From Candidatus Methylomirabilis sp. (GTDB lineage: Bacteria > Methylomirabilota > Methylomirabilia > Methylomirabilales > CSP1-5): a stretch of 54,885 nucleotides of DNA. Shown here piece after piece: positions 2,383 through 34,265 of the stretch. The number at the start of each line of letters is the position of its first letter. Within the stretch, counting starts at the first letter, position 1. Both the position numbers and the translations under genes were made by a program. Below the pieces are notes generated by a model. The model was not told the origin of the DNA. It searched no databases and saw only the letters and a program-made list of their open reading frames with translations. The DNA is taken from positions 1 through 54,885 of the forward strand of contig JAAXQN010000202.1 in assembly GCA_012974305.1 (NCBI GenBank), written 5' to 3'.

Positions 2383-2772
2383 ATGGCAAAGTCTTTTATG
2401 CAAATGGCCAAAGAGGCAATGGCACAGGTTGAAGGAATCAGTGCTGAGGAAGTTCAGCAACGGTTGAAGCAAGACCCGAATGCCTTGCTCGTGGATCTCC
2501 GCGACGCTGCCGAGATTCCATCCACCGGCCTAGCCACCGGCGGGTTGAACATCTCGCTCGGCATGCTGCCGGTCAGGGCGGACCTGGAGCTACCCGAAGA
2601 GAAGCGCGATGCCAGACTTCAAGATCGCTCGCGCCAGATTATCACCACCTGCCAGGTAGGTCCGAATGGCGCCATAGGAGCAAAACTTCTTAAGGACATG
2701 GGCTTTACGAGCGTCTGCTACCTGGAAGGAGGTATGGAAGCCTGGAAAGCCGCTGGCCTTCCGACCGAGTAG
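2383..2772 (+). CDS. rhodanese-domain sulfurtransferase
   Basis: 129 aa with active-site loop CQVGPNG and C-terminal LEGGMEAWKAAG. RBS AAAGGAGGAG. Confidence 0.85.
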   Translation: MAKSFMQMAKEAMAQVEGISAEEVQQRLKQDPNALLVDLRDAAEIPSTGLATGGLNISLGMLPVRADLELPEEKRDARLQDRSRQIITTCQVGPNGAIGAKLLKDMGFTSVCYLEGGMEAWKAAGLPTE

Positions 2773-2807
2773 CCCTGACTGTCAGAATTTAGTCTTACTG
2801 GTCTAAC

Positions 2808-2896
2808 GGCCATATAACAAGCGCATCGAGCCGGCGCGTTTATCTTTGGGCGTTTCCCTTGGCTGCGTGCCCGCGCGGCTCATGCGCGGCGTTATG
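2808..2896. repeat. imperfect ~25-bp inverted repeat (stem-loop element) in an intergenic spacer
   Basis: Left arm CATATAACAAGCGCATCGAGCCGGCGCG (2808-2838) faces right arm CGCGCGGCTCATGCGCGGCGTTATG (2872-2896), with a 33-nt loop between them. Confidence 0.5.
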
Positions 2897-2977
2897 CGGC
2901 TGCGGTAAGCGTTGAGCCAACCGCACGGGGGCGCTAGCAAGTTCTAGCAGAGTCACTGCAAGTGTGGAGGTCGGAGC

Positions 2978-3922
2978 ATGAGCCGCTTGGGTAGAAACCT
3001 ACCTCAACTCGGAAGCCAGTTCTTCTTGACGGACGGAGGCATCGAGACGTTCCTCATCTTTCACCGGGGAGCCGAGCTGCCTTATTTTGCTACATACGCT
3101 CTTCTCGAAGACGATGCGGGAACAAGGGAGCTTCGGAACTATTTGGACGATTACCTGAAGATCGCCTCCGACTTCGGTACGGGGTTCATTCTGGAGAGTG
3201 CGACGTGGCGGGCCAACCCTGAATGGGCCAAGGTGATCGGCACCTCCCCGGAAGACCTCGAAGCCCTCAACCGCAAGGCAATCGATCTTCTCGTCGGGAT
3301 CCGCGAACAGTACAAGACGGACGTAGCGCCGATCGTGATCAGTGGCAATATCGGTCCGCGCTCGGATGCGTACCGGCCTACCGAAATCATGACCGAGCAA
3401 GAGGCAGAGCAATACCACGCGAACCAGATCGCGACTTTCCGCAGCACGGACGCCGACATGGTTTCAGGCTTCACCATCACCAACATCCCTGAGGCGATCG
3501 GCATCACTCGGGCGGCTCTCGCAGCGGAGCTACCCGTGGTGATCTCCTTTACCGTGGAGACTGACGGGAGGCTTCCAACGGGCCCGACTCTTGCCGAAGC
3601 GATTGACCGCGTAGATGACGCAACCGACGAGGGTCCCGCCTATTTCATGGTCAACTGCGCCCATCCCACGCATATCGAGCCTGCACTGAAGCGCGAGGGG
3701 AGCTGGACAAAGCGCATTCGCGGCCTTCGCGCCAACTCGTCGTCGAAGAGTCACGCGGAGTTGGACGAGTCTACGGAGCTGGACGAAGGCAACCCACGGC
3801 AACTTGGTATCGAGTACCGCGCCATTTTGGACCGGTATCCACACATCAACGTCCTGGGGGGCTGCTGCGGCACGGACCACCGCCACATACGAGAGATCGC
3901 GCATGCATGTATCCGGCGGTAG
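2978..3922 (+). CDS. homocysteine S-methyltransferase family protein
   Basis: 314 aa with FLTDGGIETFLIF near the N-terminus and the zinc-binding GGCCGT motif near the C-terminus. Confidence 0.85.
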   Translation: MSRLGRNLPQLGSQFFLTDGGIETFLIFHRGAELPYFATYALLEDDAGTRELRNYLDDYLKIASDFGTGFILESATWRANPEWAKVIGTSPEDLEALNRKAIDLLVGIREQYKTDVAPIVISGNIGPRSDAYRPTEIMTEQEAEQYHANQIATFRSTDADMVSGFTITNIPEAIGITRAALAAELPVVISFTVETDGRLPTGPTLAEAIDRVDDATDEGPAYFMVNCAHPTHIEPALKREGSWTKRIRGLRANSSSKSHAELDESTELDEGNPRQLGIEYRAILDRYPHINVLGGCCGTDHRHIREIAHACIRR

Positions 3923-19768: not shown

Positions 19769-20082
19769 TCAGGCCTCTCCTGATAAGGGGGTGTGAGCGG
19801 GGGGAATAAACCTGGAAAGTGCCCGGGGGAAGGAGTACCTCACCCCGATACGGGGAAATGAAGGTGCTTTCGATTTGGAGGCTTCTCTGACATGATAATC
19901 ACACCCGGGGCCCGCCTCTTGGCTTTCAAGCGGTCCGACCCCGATCACGAAATACCACTATACCTATAGCGAGAAAGGGTTAATGTGTCAAGCCGAAACC
20001 CACAATCCGATTTTCGTTGTGGGGCTGGAGGTTCTATGGTAGCCTCCCACGCTTGGAATCCAAGGAGTGAGGGGAGGAGCCG

Positions 20083-20652
20083 ATGAAAAAAATCAAAGGC
20101 GGTGCAGGAATGCGAAAGACCTTCTTGTCAAGTCTAATAGTGGCGGGCCTCTTGTGTGGGGGTGTACCGGTTGGCCTGGCACAAACGCCTTCCGGTCCTG
20201 TGCGGATGCCTTCTAGCCTTGCGCGGATGGTAAATAAGCCGGCCCCGGAGTTCAACCTCGCCCTTCTCTCAGACGGGAAAGTCGAACTCAAAGACTTCCG
20301 CGGAAGGGTCGTGGTGCTAAACTTCTGGCACTCCGCGTGACCAGCCTGCCAGCGGGAGTCTCCCGTTCTGATTAAGGCTTACGAGATGTTCAAGGACCGG
20401 GGAGTAAGCTTCCTGGGAGTCAATGTTCCTTGGGACAATAAGTGGAGCGCTCGGAAATTTGCGGAGGATCGAAAGGTCCCCTATGCTGTGGGGCATGATG
20501 AGGGGAGTCGGATTACCGCGCTTTACCATGTGGACGCGACGCCGATAACCTTTGTCCTGGACCCGGAGGGTGACGTCGTCTTCGTCCATCGGGGGAAGCT
20601 GGACCTTGAACGCCTGACGGCGGTGCTTGAGCAAGTCTCTGACAAGAAATGA
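20083..20652 (+). CDS. TlpA/thioredoxin-fold thiol:disulfide oxidoreductase, likely selenoprotein (Sec at 20338-20340)
   Basis: The two track ORFs (20083-20340 and 20386-20652) share a frame and are joined only by TGA. The read-through product is VVLNFWHSA-U-PACQRESPVLIKAYEMFKDRGVSFLGVN, so UGA replaces the first Cys of WCxxC. An N-terminal signal peptide is present. Confidence 0.7.
20350..20370 (+). promoter_or_regulatory. SECIS-like hairpin downstream of the in-frame UGA
   Basis: CAG-CGGGA-GUC-UCCCG-UU-CUG forms a 3+5 bp stem with a UU bulge. The apical loop carries GU about 21-22 nt from the UGA. Confidence 0.45.
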
Positions 20653-20681
20653 CCTGCCGGTAATGTATCAACTAACCGATA

Positions 20682-21464
20682 ATGTTTGATCCAATTTCTC
20701 TTCTCTACCGGTTTTACGAGTGCCGACTTCTGAGAGAGGTCGAGCGAGGGGTGTTGCCCCGGCACATCGGCCTCATCCTGGACGGCAACCGACGTTACGC
20801 GCTGGAACTCGGCCTCGCCGATCCGCTCGAGGGGCACCGGCTGGGGGTGGACAAGCTCGAGCAGGTCTTGGACTGGCTGGAGGAGCTGCACATCTGGATT
20901 ATTACTATCTATGTCCTCTCCACGGAAAACCTCTCCCGTCCCCACGGCGAGCTCACGCGCCTCCTGAATCTTATGGAATCAAAGATGCGGGCCGTGGCGG
21001 TGGACCCAAAGATCCATGAGAAGGGAGTCCGGATCCGGGCGGTCGGGCAACTGGAACTCTTGCCCGCATCCCTCCAAGAGGCCATCGACCGAGCGCAGGA
21101 GGCCACGCACACCTACAATAACTTCTTCCTCAATATCGCCGTGGGGTATGGAGGGAGGCAAGAAATTGCCGATGCGGTGAGGCTGCTCTTAAGAGATCGA
21201 GTCCGGCGGGGAGCTGCCCTTGAGCAGGTCGCGGAAGAGATCACGCCCGAAGAAATTGGAAAGTATCTGTATACGTATGATCTTCCCGATCCGGACCTTA
21301 TCATCCGAACGAGTGGCGAGGTCCGCCTCTCCGGCTTTCTCCTGTGGCAGAGCGCCTATAGCGAGTTCTATTTTTGTGACGCCTACTGGCCCGCATTCAG
21401 GAAGATCGATATGCTCCGGGCCATCCGCAGTTATCAGCAACGGAAGCGTCGCTTCGGCACGTAA
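20682..21464 (+). CDS. uppS: isoprenyl (undecaprenyl) diphosphate synthase family
   Basis: 260 aa with HIGLILDGNRRYA and the cis-prenyltransferase C-terminal RTSGEVRLSGFLLWQ. Confidence 0.85.
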   Translation: MFDPISLLYRFYECRLLREVERGVLPRHIGLILDGNRRYALELGLADPLEGHRLGVDKLEQVLDWLEELHIWIITIYVLSTENLSRPHGELTRLLNLMESKMRAVAVDPKIHEKGVRIRAVGQLELLPASLQEAIDRAQEATHTYNNFFLNIAVGYGGRQEIADAVRLLLRDRVRRGAALEQVAEEITPEEIGKYLYTYDLPDPDLIIRTSGEVRLSGFLLWQSAYSEFYFCDAYWPAFRKIDMLRAIRSYQQRKRRFGT

Positions 21465-22608: not shown

Positions 22609-23490
22609 TCACCAGGCTATCTCCCGGGCGTCGAAGGCCGGCCCATCCTTGCAGCACAATTTATATGATATCGTTGACTGTCGAGCAGCCAGCTGTTCTT
22701 TGACTGACTGCTTCACGGGGATGACGCAGCCCATGCATGCCCCAAAGCCACAAGCCATAGAGGCCTCCAAAGAGACCTGGCAGGGGATTTGAAATCGGTC
22801 GGCGATCTGAGCAACGGCGTGGAGCATCGCGTGCGGACCACAGGCATAGATTATTAACCCTTGTCGGCTGGTCTGTGTCTTGAGATGTGCTTCCAAGAGA
22901 TCCACAACGAGCCCTCGATGGCCGACGCTGCCATCTTCGGTGGCGACATGCACCTTTGCCCTAGCCTTACGAAGATCGGTGAGACAAAGAACATCATCGG
23001 AGGTCTTGCCCCCGACAAAGGCAACTACTTTCCGTCGACCTTTGTCAGATGAGCGCCGGTTGGTTTTCCCTTGCTGTGAACCTCGAAGGGTGAACTGTGA
23101 ACGTGCGAGCATTTCGGCGAGGGCCACCACCGGAGGAACCCCGATGCCTCCGGCGACCAGCAGGGCTGTGGTGAGACTGGGCGGCACGTGATAGCCATTC
23201 CCCAGTGGACCCAGGAGGTCCACCCGATCTCCCGGCTTAAGGCGGGAGAGGGCTCTGGATCCCTTCCCCATCAATTTGTAAAAGATCTCCACCATGTGAC
23301 CGCCTTTTCTGTTGCTCTCGCGTCGGACCCTCAGAATGCTATAGGCCCTTGGCAGAAAGGGGTCGAACAATCCTGAAGGTTTCACCATGACGAACTGTCC
23401 AGGCTGAAAGCTGAGGGATTCTGAGGTAAAGCGCTGGAGGAAATAATCCGGGTGGAACCTTTGGAGGGATTGCACCTCAACTTGTTGCAT
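22609..23490 (-). CDS. pyrK: dihydroorotate dehydrogenase electron-transfer subunit
   Basis: 293 aa with a FAD/NAD-binding fold and a C-terminal Cys cluster (CGFGACMGC). Contains an extra basic loop encoded by a heptamer array. Confidence 0.85.
   Translation of the reverse strand: MQQVEVQSLQRFHPDYFLQRFTSESLSFQPGQFVMVKPSGLFDPFLPRAYSILRVRRESNRKGGHMVEIFYKLMGKGSRALSRLKPGDRVDLLGPLGNGYHVPPSLTTALLVAGGIGVPPVVALAEMLARSQFTLRGSQQGKTNRRSSDKGRRKVVAFVGGKTSDDVLCLTDLRKARAKVHVATEDGSVGHRGLVVDLLEAHLKTQTSRQGLIIYACGPHAMLHAVAQIADRFQIPCQVSLEASMACGFGACMGCVIPVKQSVKEQLAARQSTISYKLCCKDGPAFDAREIAW
23074..23108. repeat. heptamer array inside the pyrK coding sequence
   Basis: CTGTGAA CCTCGAA GGGTGAA CTGTGAA CGTGCGA. It encodes part of ARSQFTLRGSQQGKTNRRSS. 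Confidence 0.7.
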
Positions 23491-26400
23491 GGCCCATCCC
23501 CCCGTTGTACTCCTGCAATGCCTTGACCTGAAGACCCTCCGTCTTGAGGGCTCGAATCCCCTCCACCGCCGCGTTGGCCGCTGCCATGGTCGTAAAGCAT
23601 GGGATCCCCTGGGTGATGGCAGTGCGGCGGATGGAGTACGAGTCGAGGCGCGAGGCCCGCCCCTCAGGGGTGTTCACCACCAAGACGACCTCGCCATTCT
23701 TCATCCGGTCCACGATGTGGGGTCGAACCCCCTCGGTCACTTTGTACACGCGCTCGGCGGGGATCCCCGCATCCTGAAGGCAGCGGGCTGTGCCGGTGGT
23801 GGCCAGGATGTGAAAGCCGAGTTCGGCAAACGCCTGGCCGAGTGGGGGAAGGTGGGGTTTGTCCGGATCCCGAACGCTCAAGAAGACTGTTCCCTCGAGT
23901 GGCAGCATCCCGCTCGCCGCGATCTGGGACTTTGCAAAGGCGCGACCAAAGTCCCGATCGATCCCCATGACCTCGCCCGTTGACTTCATCTCTGGACCTA
24001 GAATGGCATCGACCCCGGGAAACTTGACGAAGGGCAACACTGCTTCCTTCACCGCCACGTGGTGCACGGCCGGTTCCCGGGTCAGCCCCAGCTCCTCTAA
24101 GGTCATGCCAGCCATCACTTTGGTGGCGAGCTTGGCCAGGGGAACCCCCGTCGCCTTGCTGACGAAGGGGACCGTCCGGGAGGCCCGGGGGTTCACCTCG
24201 AGGACATAGACCGTGGAGTTCTTGACAGCGAACTGGACATTGATGAGTCCTACTACCTGTAGGTCCAGGGCTAACGCGGTCGTCTGCTCACGGATCTCGT
24301 CTAGAATCTTGTCGGGCACCGACCGCGGCGGAAGCGAGCAGGCGGAGTCTCCCGAGTGAATGCCCGCCTCTTCGATGTGCTCCATAATTCCGCCGATAAC
24401 GACCCGCCTCCCGTCCGCGATGGCATCGACGTCCATCTCGATTGCATCTTCCAGGAACTTGTCAATCAGGACGGGATGCTCCGGAGAGGCCTGGACGGCC
24501 CGCTCCATGTAATCGAAAAGACTTGCATCGTCATAGACGATATCCATGGCCCGCCCCCCGAGGACATACGAAGGGCGAACTAGGACAGGATAGCCGACCC
24601 GTTTCGCAATCCGAGTTGCCTCGGTGACCGAGATGGCCGTCCCGCTGAGGGCCTGGCTGAGCCACGATGACACCCTCTGGCTGTTCCCGGTCTAGGATGT
24701 TCATGACATCCTCGAAGGTCAGGGGCTCGAAGTAGAGCTTGTCGGAGGTATCGTAGTCGGTGGAAACCGTTTCGGGGTTGCAGTTGACCATGATGGCCTC
24801 GTAACCAAGCTCCTTCAATGCAAAGGCGGCGTGGACGCAGCAGTAATCGAATTCGATTCCCTGGCCGATCCGGTTGGGGCCGGACCCCAGGATCACGATC
24901 TTCTTCCGAGTCGTCGGGTTGGCTTCGCATTCCCGCTCGTAGGTCGAATAGAGGTAGGGGGTAAAGGCCTCGAATTCGGCGGCGCAGGTGTCCACCATCT
25001 TGAAGGTAGCCTGGATCCCAAGCTTTCGCCGCGCGTCCCGGATGGTAAGTTCATCAGAGCCCGTCAGTTGGGCCAACCTGCGGTCGGCGAAACCCATTTC
25101 CTTGGCGGTCCGCAACTTCTGGGGGGTCAGGAGGCGGAGAAGGCTCTTAGACCGCTCGTGTGCGAGCTCTTCCTCCAACTCGACGATCTCCCGAATATTC
25201 TCCAGAAACCAGGGGTCAATTTGGGTCAGTTCGTAGATCTCTTGAACATTCATGAGCTGGCGGAAGGCGTCCGCAACGTAAAAGAGCCGCTCCCAGTTGG
25301 GTATGCGGAGTCGCTCTCGGATGAGCTCACGCCAAGACTCGCCGTTCATCTCCGTGGCCCTGGAACCGTAACCCGTGATACGGCTCGTCAGGCCGTAGAC
25401 GTCAATCTCCAAAGCACGGATGGCCTTCTGCAGTGCCTCCTTGAAAGTTCGGCCGATGGCCATCACTTCGCCCACCGACTTCATCTGGGTGGTCAGTGTT
25501 TCATCCGACCCCGGGAATTTCTCGAAGGCAAAACGAGGGATCTTCACCACGCAATAATCCAGCGTGGGCTCGAAGGAAGCGGGGGTCGACTGCGTGATGT
25601 CGTTTTTGATCTCATCCAGGGTGTAGCCGACCGAGAGGAGGGCGGCAATCTTGGCAATCGGGAATCCGGTCGCCTTGCTGGCGAGAGCGGAAGAGCGCGA
25701 AACCCTGGGATTCATCTCGATCACGACCAGTCGGCCATCGGCGGGGTCCACGGCGAACTGGATGTTGGATCCACCGGTCTCTACCCCGATCTCCCGGATG
25801 ATGGCGATCGCGGCGTCCCGCATGATCTGGTATTCCTTGTCGGTGAGGGTCTGAACGGGCGCGACGGTGATGGAATCCCCCGTATGGATTCCCATCGCGT
25901 CCATATTCTCGATGGAGCAGACGATGACCACGTTATCGTTTCTGTCCCGCATCACCTCGAGTTCGAACTCTTTCCACCCAATGACCGAGGCCTCAATCAG
26001 GACCTGGTGGACTGGGCTCGTGTTTAAACCCCACTGGACATACTCTTGGAATTCTTTTCGGTTGTACGCGATGCTGCCGCCGGTCCCGCCCAGGGTGAAC
26101 GAGGGGCGGATGATGGCAGGAAAGTCGACCCGTTCAATGATCGCATCTGCCTCCTCAATCGACTTGGCATACCCGCTTTCCGGAACCTCGAGGCCGATCC
26201 TGGTCATGGCCTCTCTGAACAGGTCTCGGTCCTCGGCCTTCTTGATGGTTTCGAGCGTCGCCCCGATCAGCTGCACTTGATGCTTGTCGAGGATACCGCT
26301 TTCAGCCAAGGCCACGGCGAGGTTGAGCCCCGTCTGCCCACCAAGGGTTGGGAGGAGGGCATCCGGGCGCTCCCGCTCGATGACCTTCTCCAAGATTTCC

Positions 26401-26612
26401 ACGGTCAGCGGTTCGACATAGGTCCGGTGGGCCATCTCTGGGTCGGTCATGATGGTGGCGGGATTCGAGTTGACCAGGACGATCTCGAAGCCTTCCTGGC
26501 GCAGAACCTTGCAGGCCTGCGTCCCGGAGTAGTCAAACTCACAGGCCTGGCCGATGATGATTGGTCCGGAACCGATAATCAGAATCTTTTGAATGTCCGT
26601 ACGCTTAGGCAT
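23477..26612 (-). pseudogene. carB: carbamoyl-phosphate synthase large subunit, disrupted by an internal loss plus frameshift near 24650-24665
   Basis: ORF 24531-26612 matches CarB from the N-terminus to ...[11 protein letters not shown], then goes out of frame. ORF 23477-24673 resumes in another frame at ...[36 protein letters not shown] and runs to the MGS-like C-terminus. Confidence 0.8.
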
Positions 26613-32209: not shown

Positions 32210-34243
<2,034 letters not shown>

Positions 34244-34265
34244 AAGTCCCTTTGGAGCTTCGACA

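Follow-up and report, generated by a model that had tools for sequence, protein, structure and literature searches.

The question raised by this locus is whether an in-frame TGA within a thioredoxin-fold gene ends translation or is read as selenocysteine (Sec). The window, by which we mean the whole stretch of DNA analysed here (54,885 nucleotides), is contig C75 of a Methylomirabilota/NC10 metagenome-assembled genome (MAG; G000) of 2.82 Mb, with 282 contigs and 94% completeness. In frame 1 of its plus strand, positions 20083-20652 form a single reading frame whose sole internal stop is the TGA at 20338-20340 and which closes with a second TGA at 20650-20652. The ORF list made with translation table 11 breaks this frame into 20083-20340 (85 amino acids) and 20386-20652 (88 amino acids). 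Both ORFs lie in the same frame, and the preliminary description of this DNA, which had them parted by the TGA at 20338-20340, was exact to the base on translation.

Reading frame and translated product

Positions 20083-20652 of the plus strand, terminal TGA included, are predicted to form a complete selenoprotein coding sequence; its product would have 189 residues, residue 86 being Sec. A Shine-Dalgarno-like GGAGG can be read from the sequence at 20073-20077 (+), 5 nt upstream of the ATG. The read-through product runs ...GRVVVLNFWHSA-U-PAC-QRESPVLIKAYEMF..., and its active-site stretch is VLNFWHSA-U-PAC-QRESPVL, in which the TGA stands at the first Cys of CxxC. The redox motif is thus UxxC, U86-P-A-C89 in the window and U-P-x-C in the orthologues. 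Two Pfam domains cross the TGA, AhpC-TSA (PF00578; residues 50-167, E 5.9e-26, 91.3 bits against a cut-off of 26) and Redoxin (PF08534; residues 50-174, E 5.5e-22, 78.6 bits against 26.6), which bears out the proposal that the downstream half carries on the same fold.

The splitting of the gene by ORF callers, also anticipated, is visible in public collections. Each half has its own protein entry there, the one of 85 residues on up to 70 contigs and the one of 88 on up to 64, and one of the two is labelled 'peroxiredoxin'. A word-indexed protein search with the read-through protein found no orthologue of full length, only Cys homologues with identities of up to 41%, which agrees with the splitting of the gene by callers and with a search length window that excludes the halves.

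Conservation of the TGA and its pairing with cysteine

We searched related genomes with the read-through protein, and each best match contained exactly one TGA. We extracted 20 orthologous loci, 13 of the same genus and seven spread over four further genera of the order. In all of them (20/20) the TGA occupies the identical column, within the motif U-P-x-C-[QR]-R-E-[SAF]-P. The preliminary description had allowed for homologues with a genuine C-terminus at this position, and none of the 20 ends there. We also sampled 201 genomes evenly across the phylum. At E <= 1e-28 they gave 74 matches, of which 49 contain a single TGA, every one of these in the window's order; the six matches that belong to other orders of its class contain no stop. 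The orthogroup is therefore restricted to one order of Methylomirabilota among the genomes sampled.

Homologues lacking the TGA have Cys at the U86 column in every case (22/22), namely three paralogues of the same genome and 19 database homologues, in the motif W-C-x-x-C-x-x-E-x-P. The proposed alignment with Cys-containing homologues thus gave the expected Cys/Sec pairing throughout, and the UGA does sit at the first Cys of a redox motif of the TlpA/ResA type (NFWHSA-U-PAC-QRESP). The UGA codon (U86; 20338-20340, +) aligns with the N-terminal Cys of CxxC, and the TGC codon at 20347-20349 (+) encodes the resolving Cys89 of U-P-A-C, a column that is invariant in the 27-sequence alignment and in the orthologues.

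Tandem pairs of the thioredoxin-fold gene were also seen in relatives. A Sec copy stands beside a Cys copy at G179:C7:4359-5490, and two Sec copies lie side by side at G032:C353:1733-2801. We interpret these pairs as local duplication with Sec/Cys exchange.

A SECIS-like hairpin downstream of the UGA

The putative SECIS hairpin exists where it had been placed, at 20350-20370 (+), starting 10 nt past the UGA. Its sequence is C-A-G-CGGGA, the loop GUC, and UCCCG-UU-CUG. In the core stem 20353-20357 pairs with 20361-20365, enclosing the GUC loop at 20358-20360 (17 nt past the A of the UGA), and below it a 3-bp stem joins 20350-20352 to 20368-20370. An outer helix may lengthen the hairpin to 20344-20378. 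No hairpin of this kind follows the terminal TGA at 20650-20652.

A 2026 review (PMC13188914) gives criteria for the bacterial SECIS (bSECIS): a loop of 3-9 nt with G in its first two positions, a stem no shorter than 4 bp, a distance of 16-37 nt from the UGA and a minimum free energy of -7.5 kcal/mol or lower. The hairpin lies within these limits: the loop is GUC and lies 17 nt from the UGA, the stem has 5+3 bp, and the extended element (20344-20378) has an energy of -12.8 kcal/mol. The earlier expectation of a bacterial SECIS prediction is borne out to this extent, but the filter by itself is unspecific. It also passed 84 of 400 random genomic positions (21%), so that the hairpin alone is not significant, and one of the three Cys paralogues passes as well. 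For these reasons we dropped the home-made filter as stand-alone evidence. The single-sequence fold of 20335-20400 was no better than shuffles (z-score 0.18), and an Rfam search of 19800-20900 at a permissive E-value gave two chance-level matches and no bacterial SECIS family.

The significance of the hairpin comes from the orthologue comparison, that is, from an invariant stem with zero synonymous change, and not from the single sequence. Both 5-nt arms of the core stem are identical in 20/20 orthologues. The first loop base is G in all 20, the second is U or G, and the third is C in 19, with U in the remaining orthologue. Synonymous variation is absent from only five of the 39 conserved degenerate codon columns, and three of these (R91 CGG, E92 GAG and P94 CCC) form the hairpin, even though CGG belongs to a six-fold and CCC to a four-fold degenerate set. 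By our own hypergeometric arithmetic, the chance that R91, E92 and P94 would all be among the five invariant columns is about 0.001. Codon 93 is TCT, GCT or TTT, and its third base, which pairs with the A of GAG, is T in 20/20. The pair just below the core stem varies in the orthologue alignment (G-U, A-U or G-C), and RNAalifold reported one flanking or outer pair with a double (compensatory) change. Since the core stem is invariant, compensatory change cannot show there; we therefore set RNAalifold covariation aside as evidence for the hairpin and used synonymous-site conservation in its place.

Decoding of the UGA

The preliminary description implied that the organism has Sec machinery and proposed searching for selA, selB, selD and tRNA-Sec. 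All four were found above their cut-offs in the window's genome. The selA gene scores 618.3 bits, selB 388.3 bits over positions 1-579 of a 581-position model, and selD, which has its own in-frame TGA, 398.8 bits. A single tRNA-Sec with anticodon tca reaches 75.9 bits in Rfam against a gathering score of 47, and ARAGORN also calls it SeC. TGA is the commonest stop codon of the genome, terminating 913 of 1992 long ORFs. The Trp tRNA has the anticodon CCA only, and the tRNA-Sec is the sole tRNA with a UCA anticodon. The use of TGA as a terminator, together with Trp-CCA as the only other relevant tRNA, indicates that the code is not reassigned, and apart from Sec the genetic code of this genome is standard.

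Three other readings of the TGA were weighed. The best surviving of them is that the UGA is read as Cys, Trp or Gly, by near-cognate decoding or by a lineage-specific reassignment. Cys or Trp is misincorporated at UGA Sec codons under selenium limitation in other bacteria, which lends this reading some plausibility. We consider it highly unlikely here, however, because the Sec machinery is complete, no tRNA other than tRNA-Sec could pair with the codon through a UCA anticodon, TGA is a normal stop in the genome, a conserved SelB-type hairpin stands at the right distance, and the pairing of the UGA with Cys in homologues is the signature of Sec.

It is still less probable that the TGA is a true stop and the locus a pseudogene or two separate small genes. 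The separate listing of the halves in public collections and the frequency of TGA as a stop codon would agree with such a stop, but 20 orthologues, some only about 40% identical, would not all have kept a nonsense mutation at the catalytic column. Both halves are still under constraint at the protein level. Moreover, neither half makes a complete thioredoxin fold, and the second ORF would start, with its ATG at 20386, within helix 87-103.

That a TGC or TGT was misread or misassembled as TGA, conceivable in a MAG as fragmented as this one, can be dismissed, since contigs of four independent metagenome runs (marine sediment, seawater, rock) from different samples and studies carry the TGA with no alternative letter at 20338-20340, and the same codon in about 50 other genomes already refutes it.

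The UGA at 20338-20340 is thus almost certainly a selenocysteine codon. We infer actual Sec insertion from the conservation of the UGA and the hairpin, the pairing with Cys and the machinery, and the support that sequence comparison lends to Sec decoding appears to be about as strong as sequence can give. With high confidence we regard the locus as a single gene, encoding a thiol:disulfide oxidoreductase with the ResA/TlpA/CcmG fold that is exported or anchored in the membrane and whose attacking residue would be a Sec directed by the SECIS element.

Fold, motif and N-terminus of the predicted protein

By sequence, the closest solved structures are those of Bacillus ResA (4nmu, E 1.9e-19; 1st9), followed by CcmG/DsbE, StoA and DipZ. 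An AlphaFold model built from the 27-sequence alignment has pLDDT values of 96-98 across residues 41-190 and superposes on ResA (1st9, 4nmu) with TM scores of 0.93-0.94 and rmsd values of 1.1-1.3 Å. In the model U86 directly precedes, or caps, helix 87-103, which is the position of the nucleophilic Cys in thioredoxin-fold CxxC proteins. The codon of Glu92 (20356-20358, +) is an invariant column aligned with the Glu of ResA CxxCxxE; we take E92 to hold the position of the active-site Glu that follows CxxC in ResA, the role of which is drawn from the ResA literature. Pro154 (20542-20544, +), in T153-P154, is likewise invariant. It forms the cis-proline loop of the thioredoxin fold and aligns with L-P-T of ResA.

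A signal peptide or membrane anchor is predicted at residues 1-33 (20083-20181, +), with a basic n-region, a hydrophobic core and the ending ...VGLA/QT. The hydrophobic segment is kept in the orthologues, though its sequence drifts, and the model has a low-pLDDT helix at residues 15-25 followed by a linker. The single N-terminal Cys is Trp in orthologues and so does not mark a lipobox. Judging from the N-terminus as read by eye, the protein appears to be exported or membrane-anchored.

ResA, TlpA and CcmG/DsbE are extracytoplasmic reducing thiol-disulfide oxidoreductases. The predicted protein resembles ResA of B. subtilis and B. anthracis (1st9, 1su9, 4nmu), TlpA and CcmG/DsbE in fold (TM 0.93-0.94) at about 30% identity. 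Common to all are the layout W-x-x-x-[C/U]-x-x-C-x-x-E-x-P, the cis-Pro loop and the N-terminal hydrophobic segment. The features of a ResA-type protein are present: the thioredoxin fold contains the ResA-type insert, a Glu follows CxxC, and there is a cis-Pro loop, E92 and P154 being invariant. Unlike ResA, TlpA and CcmG, the protein has Sec for Cys, and the Trp before the active site is Ala in the window copy, although many orthologues keep Trp. Its scores also fall below the curated cut-offs, and the gene does not lie beside ccm, ccs or ccdA genes. No curated NCBIfam model reaches its cut-off, the best being ResA (NF002854) with 100.7 against 170 bits; DsbE (TIGR00385) scores 57 against 123. 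The name 'TlpA-like' is therefore apt for the fold and motif, but it is backed neither by a curated ResA, TlpA or DsbE score nor by linkage to cytochrome c maturation genes.

A peroxiredoxin of the BCP/PrxQ or PrxU kind was considered and rejected. NFWHSA-U-PAC lacks Pro at -7 as well as Thr/Ser at -3, so that the PxxxT/SxxC motif is absent, and the scores of the peroxiredoxin models are far under their cut-offs (thiol peroxidase 27.5/140, PrxQ 24.3/260, PrxU 20.5/270). Very likely, the enzyme is an extracytoplasmic thiol:disulfide reductase or exchanger.

Gene neighbourhood

Upstream of the selenoprotein gene, on the minus strand, are serA and a class-V aminotransferase gene. Downstream, uppS (undecaprenyl diphosphate synthase; 20682-21464, +; Pfam Prenyltransf E 6.5e-76) begins 29 nt past the stop, and pyrD, pyrK and carB lie beyond it. 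No terminator-like site was found in the gap before uppS, and the two genes are probably co-transcribed. The order aminotransferase, Sec gene, uppS is conserved in the genus. In some relatives a gene for an EamA-family transporter of 311 amino acids lies between the selenoprotein gene and uppS (L024:2010-2945, +; likewise in L025, L032 and L033). This insert is absent in the window and in L022, where uppS follows after about 30 nt.

Two further observations concern the window itself. The carB gene appears as two overlapping ORFs at 23477-26612 (-), one of 693 amino acids with the N-terminal domains (24531-26612) and one of 398 amino acids with the second ATP-grasp and MGS domains (23477-24673); this is either a natural split or an assembly frameshift. 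ARAGORN also calls a 102-nt 'tRNA-Asp' at 34160-34261 (+), with the anticodon atc at position 40. Likely explanations of its unusual length and anticodon are a false call, an intron or some other oddity of the tRNA.

No linkage of the Sec gene to ccm or to ccs/resBC/ccdA was found, its neighbours being the class-V aminotransferase gene, uppS and pyrD. The sole CcdA/DsbD-type (DsbD_TM/CcdA) gene of the genome, at C79:209-862, and the CcmC/CcmF-type genes, on C100 and C146, are not linked to it. In a relative with a complete genome of 2.75 Mb (G036), a Cys paralogue (1343011-1343445) adjoins CcmF/CcmC-type (Cytochrom_C_asm) genes at 1344615-1346744. The Sec orthologue of that genome (2310896-2311258) lies about 1 Mb from the Cys paralogue, beside a UbiD gene, and ccdA is at 2702-3277. 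Because it is the Cys paralogue that stands beside the ccm-type genes, cytochrome c maturation is most likely done by that paralogue, which on its sequence context is likely the true CcmG of the order. On the same linkage we consider a ResA/CcmG role in cytochrome c maturation unlikely for the Sec gene. Otherwise the neighbours were set aside as a guide to function, being uninformative: housekeeping genes in the window, UbiD in G036 and EamA in several relatives.

Relation to known selenoproteins

Selenoproteins of this kind have been described. Proteins of the AhpC-TSA/Redoxin fold with UxxC have counted among the catalogued selenoprotein families since 2004. The 'Prx-like thiol:disulfide oxidoreductase' (PF00578; UxxC/UxxU) is a catalogued selenoprotein family in the review cited above (PMC13188914), where it is credited to Kryukov & Gladyshev 2004. 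The 'Redoxin family protein' (PF08534; UxxC) is listed there as a predicted prokaryotic selenoprotein family. Further credits for these families go to Zhang & Gladyshev 2008 and Peng et al. 2016, and the review's exemplars of the PF00578/PF08534 UxxC families are WP_010940744.1 and HEU0032618.1. In the Sargasso Sea analysis (PMC1088965), thioredoxin-fold selenoproteins with UxxC already had a prominent place. The review also cites Deng et al. 2026 for 63 selenoprotein genes in one Methylomirabilota MAG.

The gene of the window agrees with the PF00578/PF08534 UxxC selenoproteins, as compared by domain and motif, in having the same Pfam domains above threshold, Sec first in UxxC, a bSECIS within the coding region just downstream and widespread Cys homologues. 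It differs from them in that its orthogroup occurs in one Methylomirabilota order only, among the genomes sampled, and has an N-terminal export or anchor segment. With four other curated Sec models, WAxxUGC_long (NF041054), TUGYCR redoxin (NF053656), SelL-related (NF040769) and PrxU (NF040737), it shares the thioredoxin fold and a Sec in the redox motif. It is not a member of any of these, however, as the motifs differ and the scores are 26.4/300, 18.6/100, 21.8/120 and 20.5/270 bits, respectively. The opinion that this is not a new family thus agrees with the catalogued PF00578/PF08534 UxxC families (PMC13188914). The gene is real and mis-annotated, and it is a lineage-specific orthogroup within a known kind of selenoprotein, not a novel one.

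Other UGA-containing genes in the genome

The preliminary description also expected other UGA-split genes in the organism, and these exist. We scanned the genome, crudely, for TGA codons flanked on both sides by the same best frame of the six and accompanied by a bSECIS-like hairpin; 69 candidates emerged, many of them surely false. Nine of ten candidates scanned with Pfam have a domain across, or ending beside, a redox-motif U. The nine are a VKOR-thioredoxin fusion, a DsbA-like protein, two glutaredoxins, AhpC/TSA, a UGSC-family protein, a rhodanese, an OsmC-like protein and a LysW-type zinc ribbon. SelD and a GrdB-like candidate with UGLC were retrieved by the scan itself.

Apart from the VKOR fusion, candidate selenoprotein genes with a redox-motif UGA and a Pfam domain spanning it are at C46:8781-9575 (-), C118:2666-3307 (-), C230:13681-14193 (-), C230:13375-13662 (-), C194:6579-7055 (+), C255:10133-10726 (-), C266:12739-13068 (-), C134:6572-7036 (-), C79:37668-38339 (+) and C248:19923-20975 (-) of the window's genome. 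The types among them are DsbA-like (UxxC), two glutaredoxins (UxxC), LysW-type zinc ribbon (CxxU), AhpC/TSA (UxxC), UGSC-family, rhodanese (CxU), OsmC-like (UxxT), GrdB-like (UGLC) and SelD. For all but the zinc ribbon, the matching family has previously been catalogued as a selenoprotein family.

The VKOR gene, at C1:179-1006 (+) of the same genome, combines a VKOR domain (PF07884, E 1.3e-25) with a C-terminal thioredoxin-like part and has an in-frame TGA in the active site Y-W-U-P-A-C. The TGA is kept in eight relatives at 58-84% identity, and Cys versions occur at about 40% identity. Neither VKOR nor vitamin K appears in the 2026 selenoprotein catalogue (PMC13188914), and the gene may be an unlisted selenoprotein type.

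Proposed mechanism and implications

In the mechanism that we propose, SelB carrying Sec-tRNA(Sec) would bind the hairpin at 20350-20370 during translation, and Sec would be delivered to the UGA at 20338-20340 instead of termination. The terminal TGA at 20650-20652, having no hairpin, would terminate normally. If the protein is exported, its mature domain would lie outside the cytoplasmic membrane, where the disulfides of a periplasmic client would most likely be reduced or exchanged through a U86-C89 selenenylsulfide. The oxidised protein could then be re-reduced through the single CcdA/DsbD-type membrane protein of the genome. For the reducing direction and the link to CcdA we see roughly even chances. 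Apocytochrome c is an improbable client.

Throughout Methylomirabilales the orthogroup exists in its Sec form only, distinct from the ccm-adjacent Cys CcmG; accordingly, the protein could act as a periplasmic reductase that depends on selenium and has a client specific to the lineage. It might, for example, help to mature or repair a copper or haem enzyme in the respiratory or nitrite-dependent metabolism of NC10 bacteria. We regard this as a speculative and rather improbable proposal.

The family, the mechanism and the selenoprotein richness of the lineage have all been described already, which makes the finding an ordinary one, and the selenoprotein gene at 20083-20652 leaves the knowledge of selenoproteins and SECIS elements unchanged. 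Its practical value is in annotation, the gene being stored as 85- and 88-residue fragments on dozens of contigs. Since no curated NCBIfam model reaches its cut-off, automated pipelines will go on splitting it. With at least ten further UGA-containing redox genes in the genome, the gene adds to the view of Methylomirabilota as a selenium-rich lineage. The orthogroup keeps Sec across the whole order, and this makes it convenient as a marker for the use of Sec there. If the proposal of a lineage-specific client were true, part of the envelope redox metabolism in Methylomirabilales would depend on selenium.
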